32,984 bases of DNA from Candidatus Poseidoniales archaeon (lineage in GTDB: Archaea; Thermoplasmatota; Poseidoniia; Poseidoniales; Thalassarchaeaceae): NCBI GenBank assembly GCA_028821815.1, contig JAPKEY010000001.1:1-32984 (forward strand), given 5' to 3'. The translations under genes and the position numbers were made by a program. Each line of letters begins with the position of its first letter. Position 1 is the stretch's first letter. The notes under the pieces are model-generated. The model was not told where the DNA came from, ran no database searches, and saw only the letters and a program-made list of their open reading frames with translations. Shown here one piece after another: positions 288 to 29,214 of the stretch.

Positions 288-983
288 TCAACTGACTGCT
301 GTAATATCGACAATGAAACCCATGCCAGGTTCAACCCGCCAACCAATTCTAGGTTGCACCGGACCTGCGGCACGTAGGAAGCGGTTAACCGCTAGAACTC
401 GTGAAAGACTACCTCCGACCTCTGATGTTCGCATCTCGATGGAAACCTCAGCTGAGGCTGATAGAGTTCGCATCATTTCGTCTGAAATTTCATCCGGATC
501 TAGTAACAACATGAGTGAGCGCTCTTCTGAACAAAATGTTCGCAGGCGGCTGAGTAGTTGTTCTGGTGTCCCCTCATAGTTCTGAAGGATCATTGATGCT
601 CGATCAATGACTGAAATATCTGCATTCTGCAATGCCTCAGATGACAAGACATCCTCGATGTCAACGCTTTCTTCAACTTCATCAGATACAACTCCAAAGC
701 GAGACAATAGGGTGAATGTGCCTGAATTGGCAGCATCCTCCAATGGGTAACCTAGGCTGTTCACTTGCTCCAACCAACCCCGTGTTGTGAGTTCGGTTGT
801 AACCACAGTTGTTCGGACACCGTTTGAAACCAAACCATAGGCCAATCGTTGAGAAATCAAACTCTTTCCCGCACCAATATTGCCGGTTACAATGTAGAGC
901 GCCCTTCGGGGGAGGAAGCGCCCTAAGCTATCGGACAGACTGTCCGTCTCTAATTCGAAAGCAAACCCAATATCATCAGACAA
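288..983 (-). CDS. arlH: Archaellum KaiC/RecA-like ATP-binding protein ArlH (FlaH)
   Basis: 231 aa. Walker A GNIGAGKS is preceded by SLSDSLGRFLPRRALYIVTG, the layout seen in FlaH. The start is TTG and overlaps the arlG stop by 8 nt. It lies between arlG and arlI. Confidence 0.8.
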   Translation of the reverse strand: MSDDIGFAFELETDSLSDSLGRFLPRRALYIVTGNIGAGKSLISQRLAYGLVSNGVRTTVVTTELTTRGWLEQVNSLGYPLEDAANSGTFTLLSRFGVVSDEVEESVDIEDVLSSEALQNADISVIDRASMILQNYEGTPEQLLSRLRTFCSEERSLMLLLDPDEISDEMMRTLSASAEVSIEMRTSEVGGSLSRVLAVNRFLRAAGPVQPRIGWRVEPGMGFIVDITAVS

Positions 984-1464
984 GACGGATCACCTCGCTG
1001 AATGAATATTGGCCAGAGATGCCTTGATAGTGCTCGCTGCGCACAACAATGGTCACGGTAATTTCCTGTCCTGCTGACATCGTCACTCCCGAAGGACAAA
1101 CCTGTAATTCGGCCACTTCTCCTGAAGTCCAGACAGAACTATTTCCGAGCAATCGTGTTTGATTTACTGTTGATGCTGTGCCATTCACGATAATGCCGAT
1201 TTCGCCATCCAACAGTTCAAGGGCACCTGTATTTTGAATGTGCAAAGAGAGATTACAAGATGGTTGGTCCCAAGAAACTTGCATTGGATCACTGGTCAAC
1301 GCGGCTTTGGTTTTCGAATTGGCTTCGGCCTGATTTTGAACTGTATCCACAGAATTGGCCAATCCCCCCCATGATGCAATCAGTAAGGTAGTGACGATGC
1401 CTGCGACCATTAAGCCGGAAATCAGCATAATCAATTCACTTGTACCACCGTCTGCCATAGCCAC
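976..1464 (-). CDS. arlG: Archaellum accessory protein ArlG (FlaG-like), with an archaellin-like N-terminal hydrophobic helix
   Basis: 162 aa. The N-terminus GGTSELIMLISGLMVAGIVTTLLIA is typical of the FlaF/FlaG family, followed by a beta-rich C-terminal part. The start is GTG at 1464 (an ATG alternative is at 1458), 4 nt after the arlF stop. Assignment as G rather than F rests on gene order only. Confidence 0.7.
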   Translation of the reverse strand: MAMADGGTSELIMLISGLMVAGIVTTLLIASWGGLANSVDTVQNQAEANSKTKAALTSDPMQVSWDQPSCNLSLHIQNTGALELLDGEIGIIVNGTASTVNQTRLLGNSSVWTSGEVAELQVCPSGVTMSAGQEITVTIVVRSEHYQGISGQYSFSEVIRLV

Positions 1465-1467
1465 ACC

Positions 1468-1869
1468 TCATGAAAACGATATTCCTGATTGGCCGCCCAT
1501 GCTTGCGACAAAGATGCGTGCAGGAGATGTGAAACCTGTACCACTCAACTGTATATGCAATGTTTCCCCTGGGAAGAGAATGGTGCTCTGGTTATGGTAG
1601 TCACTCGCTCTAATTGGCAAAGCGCCATCAATGCTGAGCCATGTTTGATCGAAAGATATGGTTTCATCTCCTGCATTGGTCATATTGAGGTGAATTACGC
1701 CATTTGATTCTGAGGCGTTGATGAGGCGAATCTCAGGTTCGTCTGTTGCACCCCCTACGACTTCTGAAGCTGAAAGAGCACTGTTACTAAGTGACAATGA
1801 GGCAAGAGCGAATATGCCAAGAAGTGCTGTTCCGACAATCAAAGCTGAGATGCTTACTGAGCCGCCCAC
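1468..1869 (-). CDS. arlF: Archaellum accessory protein ArlF (FlaF-like)
   Basis: 133 aa. N-terminal hydrophobic helix SISALIVGTALLGIFALASLSL followed by a beta-rich domain. GTG start 4 nt after the upstream stop. Position is between the archaellin region and arlG. Confidence 0.65.
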   Translation of the reverse strand: MGGSVSISALIVGTALLGIFALASLSLSNSALSASEVVGGATDEPEIRLINASESNGVIHLNMTNAGDETISFDQTWLSIDGALPIRASDYHNQSTILFPGETLHIQLSGTGFTSPARIFVASMGGQSGISFS

Positions 1870-1872
1870 ATC

Positions 1873-2697
1873 TCAGGCCCCCTCTCCAGAGGTGGCCCGG
1901 GAATTTCGCCATGCTTCTACCATCGAGCCGAACATCAGTAGTGTACGATGTGGTAAGTGTTCTGAGCCATCGTTATTGATTGCAGGATTGGCTAAACCAA
2001 TGATGGCAGTTAACTCAGTAGATTCATCCTTAGAAATCATCCCACTGGCCTTGGCTTTATCGATAAAAATCCCAGCAGATTCTGCCGAAAGATGATCGAG
2101 TAATAATGCTGAAATCTCACTCACTGTCACCGGGGGGCCTTGAGAACGAGAATCTGGGCGCCGATTTAGGAATGGATTGAGGTCTGCAACACTCCCTTCA
2201 TACAAATCAAGTAAATTGACAGTCTCACCTTCAGGTGATTCTGAATCTTCTACATCTTCTGAAGTTTCGCCTTCCTGTTCTCCTTCGTCACCATCACCAT
2301 CGACAGTCACTAGGGTGTCCGTTGACAATACGTGGGGAAAATTGTCTGATACATTCAACTGTGTTAGGCGGGCATCCATGATGCCCATGGTCGCTTCAAT
2401 ACGATCAAATCGGTCATCCAATCTTTGCTCAATCGCTTTCGTGTCTATTGTTGAAGAATCTGAGGGCGTAGGTTTACCCTCAACAATTGCGGGTTCAAAT
2501 CCGCTGGCGCCAACGCGAGCCCTGGCGGGGGATGGGGCGAGTGTCCAAGCATCCTCTTCGATCGGGATTGACTCCTCTGGGACCATCACAGCCTCAACGG
2601 CTTGCTCGGATAATGATTCTAAACGCTTCACTGAGGCTTCATCGACGTCGTCGTATTCGTCGTCCGAACTGAACCCGAGAAATGACAGTAATCCCAT
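1873..2697 (-). CDS. Highly acidic hypothetical protein occupying the ArlC/D/E slot of the archaellum operon
   Basis: About 274 aa from ATG 2697 (the track's 2703 start is a TTG). It is rich in D/E (SSDDEYDDVDE, GDGDEGEQEGETSEDVEDSESPEGE) and has no TM segment or signal peptide. I could not recognise the conserved FlaD/E C-terminal signature by eye, so only the position supports an ArlCDE-like role. Confidence 0.6.
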   Translation of the reverse strand: MGLLSFLGFSSDDEYDDVDEASVKRLESLSEQAVEAVMVPEESIPIEEDAWTLAPSPARARVGASGFEPAIVEGKPTPSDSSTIDTKAIEQRLDDRFDRIEATMGIMDARLTQLNVSDNFPHVLSTDTLVTVDGDGDEGEQEGETSEDVEDSESPEGETVNLLDLYEGSVADLNPFLNRRPDSRSQGPPVTVSEISALLLDHLSAESAGIFIDKAKASGMISKDESTELTAIIGLANPAINNDGSEHLPHRTLLMFGSMVEAWRNSRATSGEGA

Positions 2698-2716
2698 TGA
2701 CAAAACCCCATGATGT

Positions 2717-2741
2717 CCTCTGCCCCCTACGGGGGCAGAGG
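2717..2741 (-). terminator. Perfect 11-bp stem / 3-nt loop hairpin between arlB and the accessory genes (putative attenuator/terminator)
   Basis: The plus strand reads CCTCTGCCCCC-TAC-GGGGGCAGAGG. It lies in the 57-nt gap between the arlB stop (2755) and the next ATG (2697). On the transcribed strand it is followed by ...GGGGTTTTG. Confidence 0.6.
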
Positions 2742-2754
2742 GGTTATCATAGTA

Positions 2755-3333
2755 TCATACGATGGTATCGCCATTGCCTACACTGTTGTAGTGTAGTTGG
2801 GCGTAAGTTTCGCCACCACCGTCGATGATTACACGGAGTTCTTGTTCATCACCAACACCGGGTTGACAGTTTGTCGAGGTGTCAATTGGAACCAGGAATG
2901 TTTCACCGGCCTCGACTGACGAACCGGCTACAAGGAGATTTCCTGACAAGTCTGTTGCAACACCGTCAAAGTCAGCTGTATTGACCTCGGCTGTACCTGC
3001 ACCACCATCACAAACAATGAACCAATCCATGTTGTCCAATAAGGTGGTATCTGAACCGGCACTGAGTTGAACGATCAGTGTGATTTCATCTGCTGCATTT
3101 CCGGCTGCGTTATCGTCACTAACATACGCGCCAACCAGTTGAATTTTTCCACTGATTTCATCACGTGTATCATCACCGGTTGCTTCAGCTCTCTGTTGAA
3201 GTTCTTCGGCTGTCTTGATGATGATTGTTGATGCTACTGCTGCGACCAAAATCAATGCAATGAAGATAATCATTGCACCGATGCCGATGGCACCGCTCTC
3301 ATTCTCGTTTAGGTATCGGTTATCTCGGGACAT
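2755..3333 (-). CDS. arlB: Archaellin (major archaellum filament protein, FlaB/ArlB)
   Basis: 192 aa. Class III (type IV pilin-like) signal peptide and hydrophobic helix: MSRDNRYLNENESG|AIGIGAMIIFIALILVAAVASTIIIKTAEELQQRAE, which is the canonical archaellin N-terminus. It is the first gene of the arl operon. Confidence 0.9.
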   Translation of the reverse strand: MSRDNRYLNENESGAIGIGAMIIFIALILVAAVASTIIIKTAEELQQRAEATGDDTRDEISGKIQLVGAYVSDDNAAGNAADEITLIVQLSAGSDTTLLDNMDWFIVCDGGAGTAEVNTADFDGVATDLSGNLLVAGSSVEAGETFLVPIDTSTNCQPGVGDEQELRVIIDGGGETYAQLHYNSVGNGDTIV

Positions 3334-3344
3334 TTGTTCACGTT

Positions 3345-3400
3345 CCTGTGGTTTATTTTTAGTCGAGAAGGTATTTTATTGTACTCCATGTTTATACTCA
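3345..3400 (-). promoter_or_regulatory. Putative arlB promoter region (AT-rich TATA-like boxes)
   Basis: The 80-nt gap upstream of arlB has three AT-rich boxes on the minus strand: TAAAAATAAAC (3351-3361), CAATAAAATAC (3371-3381) and GTATAAAC (3390-3397). The proximal box is about 23-26 nt from the ATG, which fits a leaderless or very short-leader mRNA. No experimental support. Confidence 0.35.
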
Positions 3401-3413
3401 GGGTCCCATGGGG

Positions 3414-4277
3414 TTATTTGGCCAAATCAAGGTAAATAGTGACAAATTCGACCTGGTTTGGCTCAAGTGTTCTGATGAATGGCCATGAATTGGTTTTCCA
3501 CCCTGGTGGGATCCATGGCGTCACCAAAACATCCGTCATTGTTTCTGCAGTTTTATTCTCTACGCGGCAATCGATTGTGAGTCCTTGCTGAGTCAAATTG
3601 TAACCCGATTGGATTGATAGACGTTCTTGCAAACTTCCCGGGGCGCCTACCTCTCGAATGGCAGCCATGGCTGATGGTGTAATGTTGAAGAGAAGGTCGC
3701 ATGATTCTCCGGGATTGAGGGCTATAATTGCCAGCGATGGGGGGGATGATCGCCAATTCGGGGGAACAGGGGCTTTGACGTTGAATCCAGGGAGTAAGCC
3801 TGAACTTGTGTTCTCTACCCTGACCAGGAGTTGTCCATTGTCAGAACCGATGTCCCAACGGGCTTCAACACCCATCCAAAATTCATAGAAAATAAATGGG
3901 TTCAGCGCGGCACTGTTAATGAGTAAATGTTCTACCAGCCTTTCCAATTGCAGAGATGATTCATCGAAAGCACCTCGCAAAATGAGAGTTTCAGCTGTCT
4001 TCATTGTCAGCAACACATCAACAAGTTCGTTTTCAGTTGTTGATCTCTCTCTGATAATAGTGTGCAACATGCCGATTGAACGATGCATTCGGCCAACTTG
4101 AATCTTAAGTTCGTCAATGTCTTGGCGTGCTTGACGAATGCTTCTACGGGCATCTCTTGCATGTTTGTCTGTTACTGATTCCTGAATCAAGCGAATATGT
4201 TCGTCAAGAATTAAATTGAGGCGTGTGACTTGAGCCCGATAGGAGCTTTGAGTTGAAATTGTAGTTAATTCAGACAT
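3414..4277 (-). CDS. Hypothetical protein: N-terminal coiled coil plus two CARDB/NEW3-like beta-sandwich modules, no signal peptide
   Basis: 287 aa. Its ATG (4277) overlaps the stop of the upstream 1567-aa gene by 8 nt. The N-terminal ~120 aa are heptad-rich and charged. The C-terminal half contains VENTSSGLLPGFNVKAPVPPNWRSS and VENKTAETMTDVLVTPWIPPGWKTNS, the same h-x-N ... P-x-G-W motif that repeats in the neighbouring giant protein. Confidence 0.8.
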   Translation of the reverse strand: MSELTTISTQSSYRAQVTRLNLILDEHIRLIQESVTDKHARDARRSIRQARQDIDELKIQVGRMHRSIGMLHTIIRERSTTENELVDVLLTMKTAETLILRGAFDESSLQLERLVEHLLINSAALNPFIFYEFWMGVEARWDIGSDNGQLLVRVENTSSGLLPGFNVKAPVPPNWRSSPPSLAIIALNPGESCDLLFNITPSAMAAIREVGAPGSLQERLSIQSGYNLTQQGLTIDCRVENKTAETMTDVLVTPWIPPGWKTNSWPFIRTLEPNQVEFVTIYLDLAK

Positions 4278-7200
4278 TGGAATCTACCTCTACGCTTACG
4301 TCGTGTGCCTCGCCCCATCTCTGTCCAATCGTAATCCTGCGCAAATCTGCTGATGGGTTGCCCAATTGAATGAGCAATTCTTGGGATTCGATTTCCATCG
4401 CTGCCAGCTGATTGAAAATAAGGAGCCAGATATTTCTCGTTCGAAGAGTCATGTACACGACCAGAAGGATCCCTATAGTTGCATACAAGAGAATGGAACT
4501 GATATTCGCTAGTGACCATGAAATATCGTTTGGCATCACGATTGCAACAATAATGAAGCCCAACGGGGCGAAAGCCAATTTCATTGCGAGTTGCTTTAGA
4601 ACTCGATCCATCTCAACTTCATGATCCTCAAAGATTGAGTCGGACCCCCGTTGCATATTTTGCCGATCAGAAAGAATGGCGGGGATCTCAAACGCAGATG
4701 ACCGTGATGTAATGAAAACGACCCACAACAATGCTGTAGCTGCCAACGAGAAATTCACGTATGCGCCGAGATTGTATTGTGTGGCCAAACCCAACAATGC
4801 TGTTCCCGAATACGCACATAACATGAGGGCTCTTTCATCTTCAGAGGCTCTACGTAACAGGCGACTGGACTGTGTCACTAAAACAAGAGTGATGGGGATG
4901 AGGAGGAGGAGGGGTAGTGACCATGATTGGACGTCGAACGATACGGCCTTGACGTCGTTTGATTCGTCATCGCCTGCCATTTCTGGCGATTCTATGGTAA
5001 CTGTACACGGCACCGTCTCAGCGGAAACCCACCAGTTGAGGGCGTCGGATTTGATTTGCCATTCTAATTCCCTTGTCTCAAATGGTTGCATGCTGATGAT
5101 TGCTTGTGTTGCTTCATCTTGAATCGTGATCCCGGGTTCACAATCCAATGTCGCAACGATTCCAAGAGCCGTTCCTGCATTTCCGGTGTTTGTTATTTCA
5201 GCAACCAGTGTTCCTGATTTTGATTCAATAAATTCTGAACCCTCTTCAATCTTAATTGCAACAACGGAAGGGTCAGCCCATGCATCCACTTGGAAGTCAA
5301 ATATTACCTGGGTGCTGGTAAATTCTTCTGGGTGTGTCAAATTGAAAATGAGGGTCCATCCATCCCCAGGGGGTATACTAGTTGCAGGAGGTAAAATTGC
5401 TCGGATTGTTATTGATTGTAATTGCATAGGAGTTGCGGGGAGTAGGGTAAATGGGCTATTGGAAAGGGAAGTAAATCCGCCCCCATAGTCTATTTCAAAT
5501 GACCAATTGACATCCCCTGAATACAATGTTTCATTGATATAGCGACTGGCATTTTCCAATTCTAATTCATAGGCGATCGCGCGTAAATCTGCTGTTTGTC
5601 CAACGGCTGGAACGTGCATCCAATCCAAATCGATATCTTGTGTTTGCTCCCCTCCTAGGAGTTCTATGGAGTCATCTGAATGCATTCTGCTGATGCGTAA
5701 CACTGTTGCAAGAAGTGCATCTCCAGAGTGATTATCTTGGGGTGAAAATGTCAATCGCAATCCAGATTGCTCAAGATTGTAGTGATCTGATGCAATGCCT
5801 TCAACGCTAAAGGATACGGCGCGCTTGTCCCCACTAGAGAGTGTGATATTGGTGGCGTCGCAATCGGATAGATCCCATCGTGTTGGAGTATCTACTTCAC
5901 AATCTAAATCGAGAATGACATCTTGATTACCATCATTTGAGATTTCGATTTCAAATGTTCTCAATTCACCTGGCAGTAAATCAACGACGTCGGGGAAATC
6001 ATCTGATGAAAGGACGAAGATGGGTTCGACGTTGAATTGTATCGAGGATAGGCCCACTTGTATCGAGTCGCTGACATTGGTTGCCATTAGCATGAGATTG
6101 TGGATTGAACCCGGGTCAAGGTTCGCACCATTTGACATGGGTGGAACCGTGACATCGATGATTAGTGGCAAGACTTCAATGCCTTCACCGTCAATTGTCA
6201 TATTCAATGGTGTAACGGATGATTGCCAGCCTGTAGGGGGGAGTGTTGTGAAATTAACAAACTCCTCAAGATTGCCAACATTGGTCACATTAACTGGAAT
6301 ACTGAGGCTCATTCCTGGTACAACAGAATATTCGCTGGTATGTTCAAATTCAATCTGGTGATTGGCAATCATTTTCACATATACATCGATGCGATTAAGT
6401 TCGATCCCGTTGTGATACAATACCACTTGAGCGCTATGATTTTCATCGGCGCGTGCAAATTGCTCTGCGGTAACTTCGATTTGAACTATACTGACTTCGC
6501 CCGGTTGAATGTCGATGTCGGTGGCGGAAATTAATGTCAAGTTGATATCATCGAGTGATTCCTCGATTGATATCGTAAATGTCTGCAGAGAATTACCAGT
6601 ATTATTGGCTTCAAGGGCAATCGATGAGTTGCCGTTAACTGGAATTACTGCAACCGCATATTCTGGAGTGAGTGATGCTCCGATGACTTCCTCTACAAGG
6701 AAAGGAATCGATGCCACTGTCAGAATTTCTCCAGAGTCACTCATCACTGTGACATTTACTTCGAAGGGTGTGTCTGCCCGGGTGTTAGGGGGCGCTGTTA
6801 CACTGAGTGATGTGGTCACGTTGTCCCCTCCAACTGAAGGCCATGCATCTATGATTGAATGGAGATTGGAGATTGCTGTTGGAGATATGGTGGTAATCCA
6901 GCCTTCAGGCCCATCGGCACTCAATGTGAAATTTGTTTGGTGATTACCTGTATTGGAGATTGTGAGGGGGATGGTTGAAAGTATCTCGGGAGTTACAATC
7001 GTTGGAGGTGGGATTTCAACGTCAGTGAGGGTCAGTTCTGGGATCTCAAGTGTGATGCTAATGTTTGACTCAGGTGCCTGGATACCACTCAGTGCCCCAG
7101 ACAAGGTAAGGTTTGCAATCACATCGATCGAGAGGGTGCCTGCAAGGGGTAGTAAATCAGAAGGGCCGAGAATTGAAGCTACAAGTGATTTTGTTTCCCC

Positions 7201-8973
7201 AAGTTCCATACTGGTTTGACTTGGTGTGACTGAGCTATTCCATCGGAAAATCTCGTTTGGTCCATTTGACGGACTCGAAGATATGAAACTGTTCGGTCCA
7301 GAAGATAGTTGAATGTCTACGGATGTCGATATCCCAGAAATAAGATTGTGGCGTAATTCCATTTCTATGTCGACGAAGCGAGAAATGGGCCCGGTCAGCA
7401 ATTCGGATGGATCTACTGGAAATTCAGTTTGTTCAGCAAATAATTCCACCATGATTGTAGATTGGACCTCGAGTGTTGTATGTTGGACGTTGGGTCCACC
7501 ACCTAGTGGTGTCACCGAGGTCCAAAGGGTCAATTGATTGCCTTCTGCGAGTTTGGACGTGGGATCAAATGGTAGTGAAAGTGCTGGTGGTTGAACTATT
7601 GCATTGACGATAATTTCCTCACCGACGGTCATGTAAGGAGTAGTGGTTGGGTATGTCTCAACCGTCCACCCGGGCGCGGTTTGTGAAAAGCCAACGGCAA
7701 GGTTGAAAATTGCAGGGGATGTGCCGTTATTGCGTAAAGTATACTGGATTATTTCTTCTGTCCCAGGGATGATAGGTACAAACCAATTACTGTGATTCAA
7801 CTCACCCAATAACAAGTCGCCAGCCATTACTGCAGCTGAATCTGAAAGATTATATTCGCCCCCTTCACTTTCAATTTCGACCGTGATTAGATCGGATAGA
7901 GAACGATTCGTGCCCAGCGGAACTGTCACTGTGACAACAATGGTTGTTGAGGCTGATGCATTGACGATTTCGGTTTGGCCTGGATTGTTGGAAGTATCAG
8001 CCCAACCTTGGACGGAGGATACTGTGAAATTGTATCGATCGGGTGCTTCTCCAATGTTTTGAACCATGAATGACAGGGTCGTTGAAGACCCCGGGTCGAC
8101 TGCTCGATCGCTCGGTGCGATCAAGGTGGTTCGATAGGGGCTGAATGTGACTGTGCGCGGAGTAATGCTGACGGTAACTGATAAGAGTGGGGTTGTTGAA
8201 TTAAAGTATACTTCACCAGATAATGTGTAATCACCCGACAACCCCGCTGCATTGATGACAAGTGAGGCGAGTTCTACTGAGGGTGGGAATGCAATGCTGC
8301 CAGCCAAAAGTGAGGTTGGCATTCCTGTGAATGTGACGGGTGTTCCGCCCAAAATAGGTGTGAGTGTGATGGCTGGAGTCGCCTCTGTATCGATGTTTCC
8401 AGCATTTCGGACGCCAACTGAAACGACTTCGTTTTCTTGGGCTAGGCGCGCGCCGTCTGCAGGCAAGGTGTCCGAGTAGGTTTCACCTGCGTTTACCTCA
8501 TTCACATCAAAATTCTGAATGAGTTGGTTGTTGGATATATCAATGTCTGAAAGCATTGCTGCGTATGCATTGATTTCTTGTCCAATGCCCAGTGTTGCTG
8601 TCCAAGTGAATACATATTGAGACGCCGCTCCAGGTGAAAGTGAGACTGACTGGCTGCCGATTGAAACCGAACCCATTCCATCGTTGCTATCAATGAACAC
8701 AGACACGGCACCCACCCCAGGGAGTAAGCCGTCGTTCGCAACAGTGATTCGTGCCTCTTGAGATCCTGGGGTGAGAACGTCTGTTACGCATAGATTGCAA
8801 TAATATGAGGCGCCGATCCATTCAATCTGAGTTATGTTGATATCGGGATTTGCGTCTCTTGCAACTGTGAATTCAACATCCATTACTGAATGATTATTCA
8901 ATGGGGTGGAGGCGAATGGGGCGAAACAATGTAGCACCAGTATCGCAAAAACGAGAATAGTTTTGTTACGCAT
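4270..8973 (-). CDS. Giant cell-surface protein: signal peptide, about ten or more CARDB/NEW3-like beta-sandwich repeats, polytopic (~5 TM) C-terminal membrane domain
   Basis: 1567 aa. N-terminal signal peptide MRNKTILVFAILVLHCFAPFAS. A GGAGGG sits 8 nt upstream of the ATG. Recurrent motifs: VRNAGNIDT, VQNIGEAPDRYNFTV, LRNNGTSPAIFNLAV, ISNTGNHQTNFTLSADGPEGW, ANNTGNSLQTFTI, VTNVGNLEEFVNFTTLPPTGW, ISNDGNQDVILDL, ITNTGNAGTALGI. The last ~217 aa (nt 4273-4923) contain about five hydrophobic helices separated by R/K-rich loops. Confidence 0.9.
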   Translation of the reverse strand: MRNKTILVFAILVLHCFAPFASTPLNNHSVMDVEFTVARDANPDINITQIEWIGASYYCNLCVTDVLTPGSQEARITVANDGLLPGVGAVSVFIDSNDGMGSVSIGSQSVSLSPGAASQYVFTWTATLGIGQEINAYAAMLSDIDISNNQLIQNFDVNEVNAGETYSDTLPADGARLAQENEVVSVGVRNAGNIDTEATPAITLTPILGGTPVTFTGMPTSLLAGSIAFPPSVELASLVINAAGLSGDYTLSGEVYFNSTTPLLSVTVSITPRTVTFSPYRTTLIAPSDRAVDPGSSTTLSFMVQNIGEAPDRYNFTVSSVQGWADTSNNPGQTEIVNASASTTIVVTVTVPLGTNRSLSDLITVEIESEGGEYNLSDSAAVMAGDLLLGELNHSNWFVPIIPGTEEIIQYTLRNNGTSPAIFNLAVGFSQTAPGWTVETYPTTTPYMTVGEEIIVNAIVQPPALSLPFDPTSKLAEGNQLTLWTSVTPLGGGPNVQHTTLEVQSTIMVELFAEQTEFPVDPSELLTGPISRFVDIEMELRHNLISGISTSVDIQLSSGPNSFISSSPSNGPNEIFRWNSSVTPSQTSMELGETKSLVASILGPSDLLPLAGTLSIDVIANLTLSGALSGIQAPESNISITLEIPELTLTDVEIPPPTIVTPEILSTIPLTISNTGNHQTNFTLSADGPEGWITTISPTAISNLHSIIDAWPSVGGDNVTTSLSVTAPPNTRADTPFEVNVTVMSDSGEILTVASIPFLVEEVIGASLTPEYAVAVIPVNGNSSIALEANNTGNSLQTFTISIEESLDDINLTLISATDIDIQPGEVSIVQIEVTAEQFARADENHSAQVVLYHNGIELNRIDVYVKMIANHQIEFEHTSEYSVVPGMSLSIPVNVTNVGNLEEFVNFTTLPPTGWQSSVTPLNMTIDGEGIEVLPLIIDVTVPPMSNGANLDPGSIHNLMLMATNVSDSIQVGLSSIQFNVEPIFVLSSDDFPDVVDLLPGELRTFEIEISNDGNQDVILDLDCEVDTPTRWDLSDCDATNITLSSGDKRAVSFSVEGIASDHYNLEQSGLRLTFSPQDNHSGDALLATVLRISRMHSDDSIELLGGEQTQDIDLDWMHVPAVGQTADLRAIAYELELENASRYINETLYSGDVNWSFEIDYGGGFTSLSNSPFTLLPATPMQLQSITIRAILPPATSIPPGDGWTLIFNLTHPEEFTSTQVIFDFQVDAWADPSVVAIKIEEGSEFIESKSGTLVAEITNTGNAGTALGIVATLDCEPGITIQDEATQAIISMQPFETRELEWQIKSDALNWWVSAETVPCTVTIESPEMAGDDESNDVKAVSFDVQSWSLPLLLLIPITLVLVTQSSRLLRRASEDERALMLCAYSGTALLGLATQYNLGAYVNFSLAATALLWVVFITSRSSAFEIPAILSDRQNMQRGSDSIFEDHEVEMDRVLKQLAMKLAFAPLGFIIVAIVMPNDISWSLANISSILLYATIGILLVVYMTLRTRNIWLLIFNQLAAMEIESQELLIQLGNPSADLRRITIGQRWGEAHDVSVEVDSNV

Positions 8974-9069: not shown

Positions 9070-12000
9070 TCACGCCACCTCCACCAATGTGATGAATTGC
9101 AATTTGTTTGCAGTTGACATCTGGGCCGAGAATTCAGATCTATCTCCTTTGTTTAAGATTTGAATGCGACATTCGTAAAGATTTGTTCTCTTGATCAATT
9201 CATGTTCTTTGTAGAAATGCACGTACACGTAATACGTTCCTTTTGGTGTTTTTTTCTCTGGCCAATATGCATTCTCGACGGGTACTCGTGTGTTGCCTTT
9301 TTGATTCATTTCAACATCGAGTATTCCGCCATCTTGTGATTTTCGGTTGCGAGGATGGATGATTTCACCACTCGGAGAAACGACGAGCAAATTGAAATCG
9401 TTCTTGTTGTCCCACATCAAGGATACTTGGAGATCTCCGGAATTTGCTTCTGCTTGTTGGAGGCGCTCTTCGAAGTCTTCCTTGAGCCATTCGTCGTCAC
9501 CCAGTGGTTGGAGACCACCTCGTTTGTATGCCTCGTTGAGAGCTGTATGCAATCGAACCTGTTTATCCATCTCAATTTCAGAACTATTCGCAGTATTTTG
9601 CATGACCTTACGGCGAGCGATTCGAAGTTGCTGGAGTGTTTTTAATTGACGATCGTCGGTGTCTTCGAATACAATAGATGCGAGTGTTGTCAAATCTTCT
9701 GCTTCATTAATCATGGAACGATATTTCTCAAACAGTTCTTGATATTCTATTTGCTCTTGTTTCTTTATCCCGGCCTCGATTAATTTACGTCGTTTGAGAA
9801 GGGCTTTCTCAATATATTTCACAACGTCGCTTGATATGTGTGAATAGCGAATTGCTGCCAATTCATCAAGATCTCTTGACGCTTCAATTTCAGCCACGAT
9901 TTTGTTATACTGCTCCTCTTGTTCTGCAATGTATTGCTTTCGTTTGACCTCTTCAAGTTCAGATTCTCGTTTCTCCATCAATCTCTTCAGCATCACCGTA
10001 TGAACGGTTGAAACCTTGTCATTAATTGTGGGTAATTCTTCAACCGTTTGAGCGGACACCACGTCTGCTCTTTGTAGGCGATAGAGTTCAGATTCAGATT
10101 CCAGCCGTTTGTTCATTGTTTCTGCATCTGGAACTTCAATCGATGCGATGAGTTTGAGTTTGTCTCCAAAACTAGTCTTACCTGAATGCTGAAAATAATC
10201 TGCACCAACTCGGCTGCGTAAGGTGTAGATGGTTGGATCTGATTTTCGCAATCTTTGGTGGCGTTTTCGGTGCCAAACAAACACGTTGTAAATACCAGGT
10301 GTGGGTGTGGTGCTCTGAGGCCAAACAATATTCTCTAAGGCGGATTTCATTTCGGGTTGAGAATTCATTTCGAGGTCGAGATGGCCGCCACAAGATGATT
10401 TGCGCTTGCCCCTATGGATTATTTCTCCGTTGGAGGTGCGTACAATCAAATCCAAATCATTCATGTTGTCCCACAATAAACTGAACCGAAGATGGCCGTC
10501 GCCTGCGTCCAGTGTCTTGATGCGGGTTCTGAATGCGGCTTCTGGTTCAAAATCAAATTCATCGGGTATTGGCGGTTTCTTAGATTTCTTTTCCGCTTTT
10601 TCCACGTATGTGGTAATCATTTCATCTTCAACAAGAATTTCTCTAACTTCTTCTTTGATTTCGATTAAGCGTGCTTCCTGTTCCTCGTTGATTTCTTCAA
10701 TCTCGATTTTGTCAATCTCGGCAGAAGATTTCGCAGTTTCAAGACGACCCCGTAGGAGTTGATACTGCTTGGCTTGCGCTTCTTCGACTCTTTGTCTTTC
10801 AATTTCTTCAAGATAATCTAACCGGGTAAGACGTAACTCTTCCAATTCTTGTTGCTGAGTTTCTGTGATGTTGATAAAGTCTACAGCAAGGAGTTCCTCG
10901 GTTTCTTCAATTCTGGGAATTGAATCCAAATATCGTGTATATTGTTCGGTAAATTTTCGTTGGCGGGCCAGTTCCACCAATTCCCCTCGTCTTGTTATTT
11001 TGATTTCTGTTAGCAATTCAAATTGTTCATCCGTCACACCCTGAATCCTGATGGCGTCCAGTTCAAGCACATATTCACAATCAAGAATCTTAGAATTTAG
11101 TTCATCACATACCAAGTTCTCCCTGGTGCGGGCGGAGAGTTGCTTCAATTCTTCTTGTTGGGTTGGGTTCACACCTGTAATGCGAATCCTATCAAGAGCT
11201 GATGATGATTTTGCTGATTCTATTCCCAATCGTATCTCTTCAGCGCGGGCGTCTTCCCTCTCACTCTGATCTTTCGCATCTAACGCAAGTATGCGCTTGT
11301 TCCGCCGTTCGTCTAATTCGGCAAGTAAATCGGCCGGTAAATCTTCGAATTCCATGTTATGCAATTCTTCTTGATCTTCGCAATCATGAATCAAATCTGA
11401 AAAATGGCGATAGAGTTCTGCTTCGAATTGAAGACGCTCTTTTTCACTCAATCGTGAAAGATAAAATTCGTAATGGGCTTTGAGGCGCGTTGAGCCTTCT
11501 TCATTCAATCCTGAGAAATCTAACGATTCGAGATAGTTGACTGTTTGTGCAGAGCGGATCTCCCGATACAATTCTTCTTCGCGTCTTAACTGTTCAAGTT
11601 GGGATGATAGTTCATCAGTTTCAGCATCAATGAGGGCTTTAGTTGCTTTTTCTTGGCTTTCATGTAACCCCAATTCCCTTTTTCGGATTTCTTGAATGGC
11701 GTCTTCAAATGTAAGTTGATACATTCGTTCATATAATTCCAGTAAAGCCGCCTGACGTAATTCCAATTCAACTAGTGTTGCGCCCTCAAGTGGGGTTTCA
11801 ACAAGGTCTTGGTTGACTTCGATATTGTATTCCTCACTCAACCCTTGGATTAATTCGATGATACCTTTGCATTCATCCCTTTTTTCAGTGGTACGATCAA
11901 GAATTGCGTGTCTTTCGATATTGGTCTCTTGTAAATCGGTGATTTCCTGTTTCATTGGCCCGCGTTTATCGGTTTGATGTTGGATTTGACGGGATGGGAA

Positions 12001-12222
12001 TGGGGCCATTTCTGGAGAATATTCAACTCGGGTACCGACTAGTGATTGTGACAATGATGCTCGCGACGGTGGAAGGATGTCTTCGACTTCGATATCCTCC
12101 ATTTTTAGTGCACCCAGTAGCGATTCGGGTTTCCTTCTTCCTTGACTCAAATTGGAGGCTGCTTGCCAAACCATAACCAAAACGATGGAGGTGACTATTG
12201 CATATCCGATCATAGTATTCAT
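9070..12222 (-). CDS. Giant N-terminally TM-anchored coiled-coil protein with two copies of an unassigned ~120-aa beta-rich domain
   Basis: 1050 aa. A single N-terminal TM (IGYAIVTSIVLVMVWQAA) is followed by RRK, so positive-inside predicts the bulk is cytoplasmic. Long E/K/R/Q-rich helical regions carry at least eight copies of a ~40-50-aa motif. The domain copies are at aa ~574-697 (nt 10132-10503) and aa ~928-1050 (nt 9073-9441). Confidence 0.9.
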   Translation of the reverse strand: MNTMIGYAIVTSIVLVMVWQAASNLSQGRRKPESLLGALKMEDIEVEDILPPSRASLSQSLVGTRVEYSPEMAPFPSRQIQHQTDKRGPMKQEITDLQETNIERHAILDRTTEKRDECKGIIELIQGLSEEYNIEVNQDLVETPLEGATLVELELRQAALLELYERMYQLTFEDAIQEIRKRELGLHESQEKATKALIDAETDELSSQLEQLRREEELYREIRSAQTVNYLESLDFSGLNEEGSTRLKAHYEFYLSRLSEKERLQFEAELYRHFSDLIHDCEDQEELHNMEFEDLPADLLAELDERRNKRILALDAKDQSEREDARAEEIRLGIESAKSSSALDRIRITGVNPTQQEELKQLSARTRENLVCDELNSKILDCEYVLELDAIRIQGVTDEQFELLTEIKITRRGELVELARQRKFTEQYTRYLDSIPRIEETEELLAVDFINITETQQQELEELRLTRLDYLEEIERQRVEEAQAKQYQLLRGRLETAKSSAEIDKIEIEEINEEQEARLIEIKEEVREILVEDEMITTYVEKAEKKSKKPPIPDEFDFEPEAAFRTRIKTLDAGDGHLRFSLLWDNMNDLDLIVRTSNGEIIHRGKRKSSCGGHLDLEMNSQPEMKSALENIVWPQSTTPTPGIYNVFVWHRKRHQRLRKSDPTIYTLRSRVGADYFQHSGKTSFGDKLKLIASIEVPDAETMNKRLESESELYRLQRADVVSAQTVEELPTINDKVSTVHTVMLKRLMEKRESELEEVKRKQYIAEQEEQYNKIVAEIEASRDLDELAAIRYSHISSDVVKYIEKALLKRRKLIEAGIKKQEQIEYQELFEKYRSMINEAEDLTTLASIVFEDTDDRQLKTLQQLRIARRKVMQNTANSSEIEMDKQVRLHTALNEAYKRGGLQPLGDDEWLKEDFEERLQQAEANSGDLQVSLMWDNKNDFNLLVVSPSGEIIHPRNRKSQDGGILDVEMNQKGNTRVPVENAYWPEKKTPKGTYYVYVHFYKEHELIKRTNLYECRIQILNKGDRSEFSAQMSTANKLQFITLVEVA

Positions 12223-12226
12223 CGAA

Positions 12227-12664
12227 TCACCCCTCTGGTTGTTCCTCTTCTTCGGCTCCTGATGAAATCGGTATTGATTGAATATGGATGGGGCGCCCTT
12301 GTTTGTTGTAGCGAGCGATTAATGAGGAAAGAAGTGCGTCATGGGAAGTTTCAGAAATTCCTAATTTTCTACGCTCATCCCAAAGAAGGATCTGTTCGGT
12401 GCGTGTTAGGATTCCGTCGTCAAGGTATACTTCGATGAGGCGGCGATATGTGTCGCGATCTGAAATTGCGTAAACGAGTTGAGTGTTATCGATTGATAGG
12501 GCCCGAAGTTGGATTTGGTTACCGAGTATAATCGCTTCATTGTGGGTGATTTTGCGATTGTCATATCCAACCTGTACTTCGTTTGCAATCGTTTGGAGGA
12601 ATTCAATTGTTTTACCGCGATTAATGCGCCGTTGAAATTTGCGAGATTTTCTAGAAAGGCGCAT
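12227..12664 (-). CDS. Small basic/helical protein, possibly TerB/DjlA-N-like
   Basis: 145 aa. Basic N-terminus (RLSRKSRKFQRRINRGK). Two helix-hairpin motifs, NRKITHNEAIILGNQIQLRALSI and DDGILTRTEQILLWDERRKLGIS, resemble the D-G-x-h-x-x-x-E ... L-G-h-S signature of TerB-like domains. Acidic tail EEEEQPEG. There are 12 nt after the upstream stop and 4 nt before the next ATG. The homology call is by eye only. Confidence 0.75.
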   Translation of the reverse strand: MRLSRKSRKFQRRINRGKTIEFLQTIANEVQVGYDNRKITHNEAIILGNQIQLRALSIDNTQLVYAISDRDTYRRLIEVYLDDGILTRTEQILLWDERRKLGISETSHDALLSSLIARYNKQGRPIHIQSIPISSGAEEEEQPEG

Positions 12665-12676
12665 CTAATTCCCCCC

Positions 12677-13519
12677 CTACTCAACTGTGAATACACACAC
12701 CAAACGTGGCGGTTCTTCATTTGTGATTTCGCCCCGATACTCTTTGGGGCCGTTGCCGTCATCTACCAGAACCCTGTAAGGCGTTAGGTCTTCTTTGGCG
12801 TGGTGCTCAAAATGTTCTATTATGACCTTGTATTCCCCTTTTGGAGCAACTCCTGCAGCCCAGAAAATGTTCTCAACGGGTTGTTCGCTTGTGGGGGATT
12901 CATTCATGTCGATATCTAGTTGCCCGCCGCATGATGACAATTTATTATCAAATGATATTCGTTCGCCGGATGGGCAAACCACACTGAGATCAAGATCGTT
13001 TTTATTGTCCCAAATGAGGCTGACTTGGACTTGCCCAGATTTGGCTCCTTCTCTTGCGAGCCGGTCATGGAAATCTGAAAGGTCGGGATTCGACACTTCC
13101 TCCCCCGTTTCGACGTTGAGTTTGTCTGAATCGGGTTCTTTCCGAGGATTTGTATCCCATTCGGCGCCAATTTCAGCAAGAAGCGATTCGGAAGTATCGA
13201 GCAAATCTTCAGGGTTTGGCAAGTCCTCACCTTCATCGATTTCAGCTTCGATTGGGATTTCTGTGTTCTCAGTTTCAGGTGCTTCATCGGGTTGGACGGT
13301 TGCAGAGGGGGTGATGACTGGTGGTTTTGACAATCGGGCCATGTCTTCTTCCAAGGCAAATTGGTTGGGTCGGGGTTCAGAAACTTCGATCGGGGTAGCC
13401 CTAACGTTGCCCAGCCGAGTTGTGTGAGCCGGGTTCTCTTCGCCGGTGAGAATTCTGGAAATGCCGAATACGAACATGGCGAACAGGATAAAAAAAAGAA
13501 CATATGCTGCCCAAGGCAT
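12677..13519 (-). CDS. N-terminally TM-anchored protein with an acidic linker and one copy of the unassigned ~120-aa domain
   Basis: 280 aa. TM helix AAYVLFFILFAMFVFGI, then an acidic low-complexity linker (PDEAPETENTEIPIEAEIDEGEDLPNPEDLLD). The C-terminal domain (aa 161-280, nt 12680-13039) is clearly homologous to the two domains in the 1050-aa protein. Confidence 0.85.
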   Translation of the reverse strand: MPWAAYVLFFILFAMFVFGISRILTGEENPAHTTRLGNVRATPIEVSEPRPNQFALEEDMARLSKPPVITPSATVQPDEAPETENTEIPIEAEIDEGEDLPNPEDLLDTSESLLAEIGAEWDTNPRKEPDSDKLNVETGEEVSNPDLSDFHDRLAREGAKSGQVQVSLIWDNKNDLDLSVVCPSGERISFDNKLSSCGGQLDIDMNESPTSEQPVENIFWAAGVAPKGEYKVIIEHFEHHAKEDLTPYRVLVDDGNGPKEYRGEITNEEPPRLVCVFTVE

Positions 13520-13578: not shown

Positions 13579-14535
13579 TCAATCTAGGATGTGAATCGCA
13601 GCAGGAGTAATGGTGTATTCAACCCGATTCGCTGTGAATATTCGCTCGATGAAACCCAGGGCCTGCATCCTCCCCAGTACCCCGCTTCTCATGTGGGGGA
13701 TAACCGATTCACTCCAGTTTGTTTTGGTGCCTGGACCATATCTTCGATGAATGCGGGAAAGCAATGAGGAGGGGGTGTTTGAACCGATGTGGATGCCGTC
13801 GATGATGTGACGCATATACGCCCACTCCCCACCCATATTGTTTCTCACCTGCGATACGATCAATGCCCGCTCCGTCGGTGATAATGAGGGGCCCCCCTCA
13901 AGGGAATCGTCGATGATGGGGTTTGGTTCTCTAACAAATCTTTTTCCTGGATCGGTAAATTGTACTCTGCCGGAATCGTCGACACTAATCAATCCGAAAT
14001 CATACAATGCCCCAGATGGTTCGGTTTCACCGGCTCGGGCCCTCCGGATCATGTAGTGATTCAGGAAACGGTTTGTTGCTGCGCGTTCTCCGTTAGGAAA
14101 TGAAGAGTGGGTTCTCGATCCTCTTTCACGGCCCTGATGTTCGTCAAATTGTTTCAACAGCGCTCGGAGGGGAGCCACACTCGCCCTGATTGCTGAACGG
14201 AAATCGTGTATAGTCGGCCCGGAACCTTGTTCATCCAGTAGGGACCAAAGCATTCTGCACCCATACTTCAATGGCAACATACGGTTGATGTGTCCAGATA
14301 CTGCGCCACCCTCGAGTGGGTGACCGGCGGTGGTTGAATTCAGTCTGCTTTCGCCTAAATTGATTAATTTCAAGGGGTCTAGTATGGAATGGTCTGCTGC
14401 TACGGTATTATCCTCCTCCTGTAGGTGATTTTCAAGGAGTAATTGGCAATATTGGCTAATTGAAAGGTCCAGTTCGTTTGCACCGCTCATTAACCGTTCA
14501 ACGAGCTGTGAAGGGAGCGTGACTGTGGCCTCCAT
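13579..14535 (-). CDS. Putative transcription regulator: N-terminal ribbon-helix-helix (CopG/Arc-like) plus a large uncharacterised domain with a winged-helix-like C-terminus
   Basis: 318 aa. The N-terminus ATVTLPSQLVERLMSGANELDLSISQYCQLLLENHL has an RHH beta-strand/helix/helix pattern. The C-terminal end (MRSGVLGRMQALGFIERIFTANRVEYTITPAA) looks wHTH-like. It is the first gene of the block and has a perfect palindrome just upstream. Confidence 0.7.
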   Translation of the reverse strand: MEATVTLPSQLVERLMSGANELDLSISQYCQLLLENHLQEEDNTVAADHSILDPLKLINLGESRLNSTTAGHPLEGGAVSGHINRMLPLKYGCRMLWSLLDEQGSGPTIHDFRSAIRASVAPLRALLKQFDEHQGRERGSRTHSSFPNGERAATNRFLNHYMIRRARAGETEPSGALYDFGLISVDDSGRVQFTDPGKRFVREPNPIIDDSLEGGPSLSPTERALIVSQVRNNMGGEWAYMRHIIDGIHIGSNTPSSLLSRIHRRYGPGTKTNWSESVIPHMRSGVLGRMQALGFIERIFTANRVEYTITPAAIHILD

Positions 14536-14929: not shown

Positions 14930-15544
14930 TTACAGGTGGCCTGCAGAGAAGGCATCGATGACTTCCGGATACAATTTATGCTCAAGTACCTTAACGCGCT
15001 CAGATAAACTATCTTCATCATCATCAGGGTTAATCTCGAGTTGGTTTTGCGCTAATATTTTCCCGGTATCCATGCCATCATCAACCAAATGAACGGTGCA
15101 ACCTGTGATGGTAGCACCATCTGCAAGGGCATCTCGGTGGGCATGGGCACCAGGATATTTGGGCAATAGAGAGGGGTGGATGTTGAGCATACGCCCACTC
15201 CATGCCCGCACGAATAAAGGTGATAGGATCCGCATATAACCAGACAGTACAACTGCTTCAATCTCATGTTCTTGCAGGGCAGCCATAATGGCTATTTCGT
15301 GTACCTCACGCCGCTCTATTTTGCTTGGAACTGACATATCTAATTCAATTGTAATTGTGTTGACGTTGTGGACTTGGGCCTTGTCCAAACCGGATGCGGA
15401 GGCAATGTTGGAGACGATTAATGTGGTTTCATGTAAACATGGTTTCGACTCTTGATGATGCAATAGTGCTTCCATCCCTGAGCCCGATCCAGAAATGAAG
15501 ACGGCTAACCGAAGTGGGTTTTCGATGGTTGCAACACGCATCAT
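14930..15544 (-). CDS. purN: Phosphoribosylglycinamide formyltransferase (GAR transformylase)
   Basis: From the internal ATG at 15544: MMRVATIENPLRLAVFISGSGSGMEALL ... VVLSGYMRILSPLFVRAWSGRMLNIHPSLLPKYPG ... TGCTVHLVDDGMDTGKIL. These are canonical PurN motifs (the HPSLLP and DxG segments). The 117-codon N-terminal extension in the ORF track has no PurN similarity and overlaps the divergent gene. Confidence 0.9.
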   Translation of the reverse strand: MMRVATIENPLRLAVFISGSGSGMEALLHHQESKPCLHETTLIVSNIASASGLDKAQVHNVNTITIELDMSVPSKIERREVHEIAIMAALQEHEIEAVVLSGYMRILSPLFVRAWSGRMLNIHPSLLPKYPGAHAHRDALADGATITGCTVHLVDDGMDTGKILAQNQLEINPDDDEDSLSERVKVLEHKLYPEVIDAFSAGHL

Positions 15545-15565
15545 CTTGCCTCTCTCAAACGGGGG

Positions 15566-15581
15566 CACGCAGTACTGCATG
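15566..15581. promoter_or_regulatory. Palindrome in the purN / DUF454 divergent intergenic region
   Basis: CACGCAGTACTGCATG, with a perfect 10-bp core GCAGTACTGC at 15569-15578. It lies between the divergent starts at 15544 and 15637. Confidence 0.25.
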
Positions 15582-15636
15582 AAGAGGTTGGCCCTTGCAT
15601 GCGAAGGGTGATAGGTAGCATGTCGAGGGGGGGAAC

Positions 15637-16125
15637 ATGGTCGAACGGTTGGAGTCGATTGACGCAATCGTTGAACGGTATTGTGTGGCAAGTAGTCCAG
15701 CCAAGAGTCGCCTCTACATTGGATTGGGGTCGTTATTCGTGGTTTTTGCCATTGTTGGCATATGGGTGCCAGGGTGGCCAACTGTGTCATGGGCTGTTCC
15801 TGCAGCCTTCCTTTTCTCCTATTCCAGTGAGTCAATGTTTCGCTGGACGTTAACAAATCGATTTTTTGGGGTAGCGATGTTTGAGTATTATGCAACAGGA
15901 AAAACCGTACCGAAACATGCGAAATATGGCATCATGTGCCTGATTGCGATGATGACCATGTCTTCAGCAACTTTTGTTTGGTACATCTCAACACTAGGGA
16001 ATGGAGACGTAATGGTTCCAGCTTCATGGAATGGTGCTGATCCAGGTTACGGTGCTATCACCATAACCCTTGCAGGTTTGATTGGGATCTGGTGGCTATA
16101 CGCTAAGGTCGAAACTCGCGAATAA
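15637..16125 (+). CDS. DUF454 (YbaN-like) small membrane protein
   Basis: 162 aa. VFAIVGIWVPGWPTVSWAVPAAFLFSYSSESMFRW matches the YbaN/DUF454 pattern (G-h-h-h-P-G-h-P-T ... F-x-x-S-S). It has 3-4 TM segments and a G-rich SD-like GAGGGGGG upstream. Confidence 0.7.
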   Translation: MVERLESIDAIVERYCVASSPAKSRLYIGLGSLFVVFAIVGIWVPGWPTVSWAVPAAFLFSYSSESMFRWTLTNRFFGVAMFEYYATGKTVPKHAKYGIMCLIAMMTMSSATFVWYISTLGNGDVMVPASWNGADPGYGAITITLAGLIGIWWLYAKVETRE

Positions 16126-29020: not shown

Positions 29021-29127
29021 CTAGTGAGGCCGGGGGTGGAGCCCCTACTTGAGAAAGGTGGCTTCAAAATCGGCCGGATTGACCCCGTCGCTTTGATAAG
29101 AAAGTGGTTGGTCGCTGGATTGCTAAT

Positions 29128-29214
29128 GCAGAGGTTGCCAAGCTTGGTCAACGGCGCTGGGATGAGGTCCCAGTCCTCAGTGGTTCGCAGGTTCAAATCC
29201 TGCCCTCTGCACCA
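29128..29214 (+). tRNA. tRNA-Leu (anticodon GAG), class II with a long variable arm and genomically encoded CCA
   Basis: Hand fold: acceptor GCAGAGG/CCTCTGC; D arm GCCA...CGGC (13:22 mismatch); anticodon stem CTGGG/CCCAG with loop A-T-GAG-G-T; 13-nt variable arm; T arm GCAGG-TTCAAAT-CCTGC; discriminator A plus CCA. A TATA-like TTTGATAAGAAA lies about 30 nt upstream and a T5 run immediately downstream. Confidence 0.9.

Follow-up and report, generated by a model that had tools for sequence, protein, structure and literature searches.

YfaP of Escherichia coli (b2225) is a secreted, periplasmic protein with a signal peptide, encoded in an alpha2-macroglobulin operon. Our literature search returned no paper mentioning its family, DUF2135, and YfaP itself only within lists of uncharacterised E. 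coli genes. TerD proteins (PF02342) are soluble, single-domain and encoded together with terZABCE. Here we analysed a stretch of 32,984 nt (the window; contig JAPKEY010000001.1, assembly GCA_028821815.1, positions 1 to 32,984 of the forward strand) from a Candidatus Poseidoniales archaeon of the Thalassarchaeaceae, in which three copies of a domain related to YfaP lie in two adjacent membrane-anchored proteins, g280 and g1050. What is new is the apparently cytoplasmic, rod-borne architecture of a DUF2135-type domain in Marine Group II (MGII) archaea.

The window contains genes for a thermosome, archaellins, the KaiC-like ArlH, ArlF and ArlG. Genes without a name are called after the length of their products: g280 is the 280-aa protein, g145 a 145-aa open reading frame (ORF) and g1050 the 1050-aa protein, and likewise for g318, g1567 and g287. 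Tully et al. 2019 (PMC6336850) reported 'several orthologous proteins lacking annotations' from the motility region of MGII, and Rinke et al. 2018 (PMC6461757) discussed the MGII motility operon as possibly adhesive. Neither of the two papers describes the domain.

Three copies of one module in g280 and g1050

As listed in Table 1, g280 carries one copy of the domain (A) and g1050 carries two (B and C). The copies aligned end to end with 29 invariant columns (36% identity), and pairwise identity was 34-38%. Each is preceded by a related 11-residue helix-like pre-motif, which matches the family-wide consensus RLxREGAKSG, and the repeat unit therefore comprises about 130 residues and starts 11 residues earlier than the domain itself. 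Pairwise BLASTP including the pre-motif gave E = 1.4e-24 (A/B), 4.5e-30 (A/C) and 1.4e-31 (B/C), values that rule out a chance or low-complexity repeat. A six-frame hidden Markov model (HMM) scan of the window found exactly these three copies and none besides. A, B and C are paralogous instances of one module of about 130 residues, made up of the pre-motif and a nine-strand beta-sandwich. Alignment over the full length, BLASTP and the six-frame scan thus agreed with the preliminary description of this DNA on both ORFs and on the three copies; its coordinates held for A and C and were one codon off for B.

Relationship to the YfaP/DUF2135 family

The preliminary description had suggested a resemblance to DUF2135/YfaP, which proved to be true homology. 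In hhalign, the family profile matched E. coli YfaP at 97.9% (E 3e-13) with an earlier alignment and at 98.3% (E 2e-14, 109/120 columns) with alignment A5. Copy A alone matched YfaP in BLASTP with 32% identity (E 5e-10). By these comparisons the domain belongs to the YfaP/DUF2135 superfamily (PF09906, COG4676), as a divergent branch that existing models cover poorly. It had also been called unassigned. This was correct in so far as no domain model of Pfam or NCBIfam reached threshold in the window proteins; it was incorrect in that relatives already carry the names 'uncharacterized protein YfaP (DUF2135 family)' or 'YfaP family protein' (JGI, NCBI).

PF09906 (DUF2135, now YfaP_C) had no match at E<=1 in g280 and g1050, and an NCBIfam scan of g280, g145, g1050 and g318 gave none either. 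Among single-copy relatives, 32 of 81 had a sub-threshold PF09906 match. Relatives scored 20.7-21.2 bits against a gathering score of 22, and among 11 family members there were only two weak matches (best E 0.006). The model has 48 positions and covers only the region of the G-x-Y-x-V strand (domain positions ~65-95). For this reason the copies escape Pfam, and the acidic N-terminal two-thirds of the domain is left unmodelled. A sequence search of the PDB with the three-copy profile gave noise only (best E 0.27).

An exhaustive HMMER profile search yielded 9,331 cluster representatives at E<=1e-3, 5,909 at E<=1e-10 and 571 at E<=1e-30; word-indexed searches, with 15 and 90 matches, under-reported the family. 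Clustered at 50% identity, the family comprises more than 9,000 clusters; its members come from bacteria, from archaea and from at least one eukaryote, and some of its proteins hold up to 13 copies of the domain. Most of these ~9,300 clusters would escape annotation by PF09906.

Predicted fold and conserved residues

AlphaFold2, run on copy A with an 11-sequence alignment, gave a nine-strand all-beta model (predicted local distance difference test score, pLDDT, 90.3; predicted template modelling score, pTM, 0.85), in agreement with the beta-sandwich suggested in the preliminary description. A confident sandwich was thus obtained; a close PDB match was not, for Foldseek with this model returned no PDB entry at E<=1e-3. 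The best PDB matches were generic sandwiches with TM-scores of 0.44-0.51, namely TTHA1873, MmpS5, the CspA C-terminal domain, DUF4425 and the ColH collagen-binding domain. The best structural matches anywhere were uncharacterised phage proteins of ~700 aa, themselves predicted structures: S0A5K4 of Cellulophaga phage phi4:1 (TM-score 0.71, 22% identity) and A0A172Q093 of Acinetobacter phage ME3 (TM-score 0.68, 12% identity). Their context is unlike that of the window proteins.

Conservation was counted over 238 aligned instances, with residues numbered as in copy A. Near-invariant were W10 (97%), D15 (97%), D17 (91%), L18 (96%), P23 (97%), G39 (98%), E56 (97%), N57 (86%), G68 (100%) and Y70 (97%), and D42, D44 and N46 were kept in ~80% each. 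Seven polar positions (D15, D17, D42, D44, N46, E56 and N57, with D/E/N exchanges allowed) were all kept in 170 instances (71%), and all three window copies hold the full set. Polar losses were correlated in two groups, D15/D17/D44/E56 and D42/N46/N57/E26 (phi 0.36-0.56). Judged from this alignment, the family hallmark is W10, D15, D17, D42, D44, N46, E56 and N57 around the G-x-Y-x-V core strand, and the polar set probably makes up, along one edge of the sandwich, one or two candidate sites for a ligand or a divalent cation. C22 and C37 co-vary: both were present in 44 instances, and C22 alone in 4.

Membrane anchors

In the 162 family proteins surveyed, the domain was mostly the distal head of a membrane tether. 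One layout, assigned to Planctomycetota and confirmed for P0119, begins with a Zn-ribbon or GYF_2 module in the cytoplasm, followed by basic residues, a single transmembrane segment, a G/S/P/E-rich linker, RLxREGAK and the domain. Its head is placed in the periplasm because the cytoplasmic N-terminal module and the basic residues precede the single transmembrane segment; topology prediction gave 14 C-out, 2 C-in and 17 ambiguous. A second layout, to which both window proteins belong, consists of a 3-10-residue uncharged or acidic N-terminal tail, a transmembrane helix, a basic cluster, a helical linker of high charge and the domain. Half of the proteins with an N-terminal transmembrane helix (25/50) were predicted to be N-out/C-in. 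Further classes were Bacteroidota lipoproteins, polytopic proteins whose first loop holds the domain, and giants with multiple copies. Across these layouts, the domain would appear to sit at the far end of a tether, on one side of the membrane or on the other.

Both g280 and g1050 have an N-terminal hydrophobic anchor. In all their orthologues no positive residue stands before the transmembrane helix and a basic cluster (GRRK / KKRK) follows it, and neither ORF can be extended upstream. With an uncharged N-terminal tail, a transmembrane helix and a basic cluster, the two proteins do not appear to fit a location by signal peptide or lipobox as in YfaP. The ratio of observed to expected N-X-S/T sequons was 0.80 in g1050 and 0.47 in g280, compared with 0.35-1.1 in cytoplasmic controls and 1.85-2.80 in the extracellular neighbours g1567, g287, ArlF and ArlG (archaellin 0.64). 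The linkers of this class are charged and helical, not G/S/P-rich low-complexity spacers. From the positive-inside pattern, the sequon proxy and the type of linker we infer that the domains of g280 and g1050 lie in the cytoplasm, a topology opposite to that of periplasmic YfaP and the Planctomycetota members. The cytoplasmic, membrane-tethered and helical-rod context proposed earlier is thus also what these features predict.

We read P0149 (L032:898-2451) as an independent intracellular precedent for the domain. This intermediate-filament protein of a eukaryote (Filament 109 bits) has as its tail a DUF2135-like domain, preceded by RRLQREKAKVG, in place of the lamin-tail Ig fold. Its gene has exon-like fragments of CD36 and multicopper oxidase as neighbours.

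Relatives of other layouts were seen in contexts of their own. The polytopic member P0079, of 732 aa and with the domain in its first loop, is encoded next to a bacterial alpha2-macroglobulin gene and a PBP1C-type gene (L034:1-9199), paralleling yfaP in the E. coli yfaS operon. This parallel suggests an ancestral link of the family to an alpha2-macroglobulin periplasmic defence operon. Unlike at E. coli yfaP and P0079, no alpha2-macroglobulin gene was found in the window. For two members from Planctomycetota, the gene stands immediately behind one of the MotA/ExbB family, with GYF_2/DUF4190 genes around it. The order in these clusters (L033:5342-10769, L035:521-6683) is GYF_2/DUF4190, MotA/ExbB, at least one protein of GYF module, transmembrane segment, linker and head, and two 'FQD' proteins. 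The heads are DUF2135-like or VWA-like domains, and the 'FQD' proteins have an ExbD/TolR-like transmembrane segment and a coiled coil. By analogy, the cluster looks like an undescribed motor system driven by the proton motive force with TonB/TolA-like outputs.

The helical rod of g1050

The rod of g1050 (window 9595-11559, - strand) contains eight, perhaps nine, helical repeats of 39 aa, for example IESAKSSSALDRIRITGVNPTQQEELKQLSARTRENLVC. Five of them precede copy B, and three lie between it and copy C. In leave-one-out HMM tests the repeat units outscored all their own shuffles, with E values from 1e-3 to 6e-11. A single-sequence AlphaFold model of full-length g1050 had a pLDDT of 40 and gives coarse secondary structure only.

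Table 1. Features of the cassette and its neighbours, in window coordinates (aa positions refer to the respective protein)
Feature	Position (nt)	Strand	Basis
g280, bitopic: N-terminal transmembrane helix, acidic linker, one domain copy	12677-13519	-	ORF list; orthologues in all related loci
g280 transmembrane helix, aa 4-21; N-terminal tail of 3 residues, uncharged; Arg immediately after	13457-13510	-	Kept in orthologues
g280 linker, aa 22-149, acidic, Pro/Glu-rich	13073-13456	-	D+E 0.28, K+R 0.07
Pre-motif A, FHDRLAREGAK (family consensus RLxREGAKSG)	13040-13072	-	Consensus of 81 relatives
Domain copy A, aa 161-280, YfaP/DUF2135-like beta-sandwich	12680-13039	-	Alignment, AlphaFold2, hhalign, BLASTP, HMM scan
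g145, small soluble protein; C-terminal DG-I-x3-E...LGIS motif at nt 12311-12448	12227-12664	-	ORF, synteny, HMM
g1050, transmembrane-anchored helical-rod protein, two domain copies	9070-12222	-	ORF list, related loci, low-confidence model
g1050 transmembrane helix, aa 5-22, then basic cluster QGRRKPE (nt 12124-12144)	12157-12210	-	Sequence
g1050 helical rod 1, aa ~91-542, charged; five 39-aa helical repeats	10597-11952	-	Low-confidence model, secondary structure only
Pre-motif B, FRTRIKTLDAG	10501-10533	-	Sequence
Domain copy B, aa 575-698, in g1050	10129-10500	-	Alignment, HMM scan, BLASTP
g1050 helical rod 2, aa ~741-924; three 39-aa repeats	9451-10002	-	Repeat HMM, low-confidence model
Pre-motif C, FEERLQQAEAN	9442-9474	-	Sequence
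Domain copy C, aa 928-1050, C-terminal in g1050	9073-9441	-	Alignment, HMM scan, BLASTP
g318, conserved first gene of the block; weak CopG/ribbon-helix-helix-like N-terminus; possible regulator	13579-14535	-	Context only
Archaellum cluster downstream of the cassette, including surface proteins	288-8973	-	
arlB	2755-3333	-	
276-aa unannotated gene (g276) in place of arlC/D/E	1873-2703	-	
arlF	1468-1869	-	
arlG	976-1464	-	
arlH	288-983	-	

Conserved gene cluster

Related loci were found in 18 species-level genomes of the Thalassarchaeaceae, the closest being 96% identical. The genes follow one another on one strand in the order g318, g280, g145, g1050, g1567, g287, arlB, g276, arlF, arlG and arlH. 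This order was strictly colinear in every sufficiently long locus, down to ~50% protein identity, and synteny was seen in the 18 genomes and 35 further metagenomic loci. Gaps of 12 nt between g280 and g145 and of 4 nt between g145 and g1050 indicate that the three genes are co-transcribed. The product of g1567 is a giant Ig-like/NPCBM_assoc surface protein with C-terminal transmembrane segments, and g287 encodes a 287-aa relative.

The 'DDGILTRTEQILLWDERRKLGIS' motif of g145 has a homologue (83%, E 9e-6) in repeat three of a protein of 319 aa with a PadR/MarR-like winged helix-turn-helix (wHTH) domain. The g145 HMM matched this wHTH and TerB-like protein (E 5e-10) in a second Poseidoniales lineage (L025:6493-7449, L020:5423-6379), where it passes the Pfam TerB threshold (32.7 vs 24.4 bits) and is encoded two genes upstream of a two-copy domain protein. 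The recurrence of a g145-like module modestly supports the idea that g145 and the rod protein are functionally linked. That g145 itself is TerB was rejected on direct profile comparison with genuine TerB (0.07%). The N-terminus of g318 weakly resembles CopG/ribbon-helix-helix proteins (E 0.15) and the gene follows a 394-nt AT-rich intergenic region; judged from this, g318 could be a local transcription regulator. No g318 homologue was found in the second lineage, and the wHTH-TerB-like protein stands in that place.

In other archaeal lineages, two-copy homologues of the layout shared by g280 and g1050 sit amid housekeeping genes (L026, L031, L025/L076), and no archaellum genes were found near them. 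Adjacency to the archaellum genes is therefore clade-specific and may be simply inherited.

Other features of the window were noted. An M28 and M50 peptidase pair (window 30200-32709) also adjoins the two-copy domain protein P0026 on a 1.86-Mb archaeal contig (L031:7209-13129); the rod gene may ancestrally have occupied this alternative position. In the purN ORF (14930-15895, - strand; 321 aa with a TTG start) the match to Formyl_trans_N begins only at residue 129. Translation probably starts at an internal Met, in which case the intergenic region upstream is longer. A tRNA-Leu(GAG) gene (29128-29214, + strand) lies within a mechanically called 343-aa ORF (29104-30135, + strand), which is for this reason probably spurious.

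Role of the cassette

We think it fairly likely that the cassette is a membrane-proximal cytoplasmic scaffold or adaptor bearing divergent DUF2135 binding heads, possibly Ca2+-dependent. In such a scaffold, g280 would be an N-out/C-in bitopic protein with an acidic linker and a ZipA-like layout. g1050 would be an N-out/C-in membrane-anchored helical rod, EzrA- or lamin-like, with one head in the middle of the rod and one at its C-terminus. Both would act together with the small soluble g145, perhaps in a complex, as products of one co-transcribed cassette, and the beta-sandwich heads would bind partners, possibly in a Ca2+-dependent manner.

Several points weigh against this proposal. Most characterisable relatives are extracytoplasmic, as seen from the signal peptide of YfaP, the Bacteroidota lipoproteins and the order of transmembrane segment, linker and domain in Planctomycetota, so that a cytoplasmic class would be an exception. 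The predicted topology draws on the positive-inside rule and a sequon proxy, and in g280 the charge bias after the transmembrane helix is weak (R22, then E27 and E28). The co-variation of C22 and C37 could reflect a disulfide, which is commoner outside the cell. The survey of the literature and the family yielded no known partner or ligand for any member.

Some of these points would fit a location of the g280 and g1050 domains outside the cell, in the pseudo-periplasm or envelope, where they would form envelope components with g1567 and the archaellum filament, for example stalks or adhesion accessories. The majority of the family is extracytoplasmic, the downstream products g1567, g287 and ArlF/G are extracellular and sequon-rich, the two cysteines are compatible with a disulfide, and charged extracellular coiled coils occur elsewhere, for example in streptococcal M proteins. 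We nevertheless consider this location rather unlikely. In all orthologues positive residues are lacking before the transmembrane helix and the basic cluster after it is conserved; sequons are not enriched in g280 and g1050, unlike in every clearly extracellular protein of the operon; the ORFs, which cannot be extended upstream, offer no signal-peptide n-region; the co-operonic g145 has neither a transmembrane segment nor a signal peptide; and the intermediate-filament fusion indicates that the domain can work inside a cell. Quite improbable, in our judgement, is that the domain is a remote TerD-type Ca2+-binding sandwich and the cassette a Ter-like stress- or metal-sensing module with g145 as its TerB-like partner. 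Like the domain, TerD is an Asp/Asn-rich all-beta sandwich of similar size, and motifs correspond in the first four strands (TerD GLGWD / DFDLD / IFYNN / S.DG). Profile A5 gave a borderline match (55% probability, P 1.2e-4) to a TerD profile of nine members from three plasmids, with the motif parallels LxWD / DxDLD / IxFxN / S..G, and g145 matches, as said, the C-terminal repeat of a 319-aa protein above the Pfam TerB threshold. However, this profile match was confined to the N-terminal 48 columns, and hhalign of the family profile with a single TerD sequence (PF02342 E 3e-89; 96% identical to Klebsiella TerD) gave 4.4%. No match to Pfam TerD was found in g280, g1050 and family members even at E<=10, and no TerD structure was among the 50 best Foldseek PDB matches of copy A (best TM-score overall ~0.5). 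The TerD Ca2+-binding motif GDN(R)TG...GDGDDE, also visible in the TerD alignment consensus, is absent from the copies, which have GGxLDxDMN and then PVEN at that place. The distance of g145 from genuine TerB was mentioned above, and neither TerA, TerC nor other ter genes were found in the window. The TerD resemblance suggested in the preliminary description was borderline; by these comparisons TerD is possibly a very remote relative or a case of motif convergence, and not the family of the domain.

Given the neighbourhood, one may ask whether the cassette is an accessory dedicated to the archaellum, namely a scaffold on the cytoplasmic side, itself anchored in the membrane, that would position the motor of Thalassarchaeaceae or hold it in place. 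An archaellum-specific role was down-weighted after homologues were found in non-archaellum contexts, and we now regard it as distinctly unlikely. In its favour, every locus of sufficient length shows the block from g318 to arlH in one order, on one strand and closely packed; Tully et al. 2019 (PMC6336850) recorded that the motility operon of MGII holds conserved genes lacking annotation; and the Planctomycetota members also adjoin a motor-type gene, MotA/ExbB. All supporting loci, however, belong to one family, in which vertical inheritance accounts for the synteny; the two-copy homologues elsewhere lie among housekeeping genes, away from any archaellum; and a 96-nt gap and the gene for the giant surface protein separate g1050 from arlB. 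A still bolder possibility is that g280, g145 and g1050 form a divalent-cation-responsive, lamin-like lattice in which the heads cross-link rods under the membrane, and which in Thalassarchaeaceae would be the 'polar cap' platform anchoring the archaellum motor. We rate this as highly improbable. Electron cryotomography work is not known to have established the protein identity of this platform in any archaeon.

The cytoplasmic scaffold or adaptor bearing binding heads thus remains the reading we prefer. The full unit of ~130 residues and its conserved polar signature are now defined for a large family, of which PF09906 models barely a third of the domain. Among planktonic archaea, the group in which the rod-borne, apparently cytoplasmic form occurs is one of the most abundant. 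The copies, of which A has a confident model, offer defined constructs for structural work and binding assays, and several 'hypothetical' genes conserved beside the MGII motility operon receive a first annotation.

Comparison with known systems

ZipA and EzrA are bacterial N-out/C-in membrane tethers. With ZipA, g280 shares an N-terminal transmembrane helix, a charged, Pro-rich linker and a globular head at the C-terminus; with EzrA, g1050 shares an N-terminal transmembrane helix and a helical rod, predicted in g1050 to be cytoplasmic. The Planctomycetota members resemble TonB/TolA in their transmembrane segment, long linker and head, and in being encoded right after MotA/ExbB. The analogy to these four proteins is one of layout only, as the sequences are unrelated and neither an FtsZ-binding nor a TonB-C domain is present. 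Similarly, g1050 is a long helical rod with beta-sandwich heads, which recalls the coiled-coil rod and C-terminal beta-sandwich of lamin-type intermediate filaments, and P0149 is a real intermediate-filament protein with the domain as its tail. Unlike intermediate filaments, g1050 is anchored by a transmembrane helix, has its second domain in the middle of the rod and builds the rod from 39-aa repeats, and no Filament (PF00038) or LTD match was found in g1050 with Pfam. The likeness to lamins is an analogy of architecture, not homology.

The founding member of the family, YfaP, is homologous over nearly the whole domain and has the same order of motifs: L-x-W-D, D-L-D-L-(H)-V, P-x-G-E, G-x-L-D-x-D, P-(V)-E and G-x-Y-x-V-x-V. 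The window copies have PVENIxW where YfaP has GYGPEIF, and are preceded by the RLxREGAKSG pre-motif, which YfaP lacks. Unlike YfaP, the window proteins are archaeal, multi-copy and rod-borne, and are predicted to be N-out/C-in.

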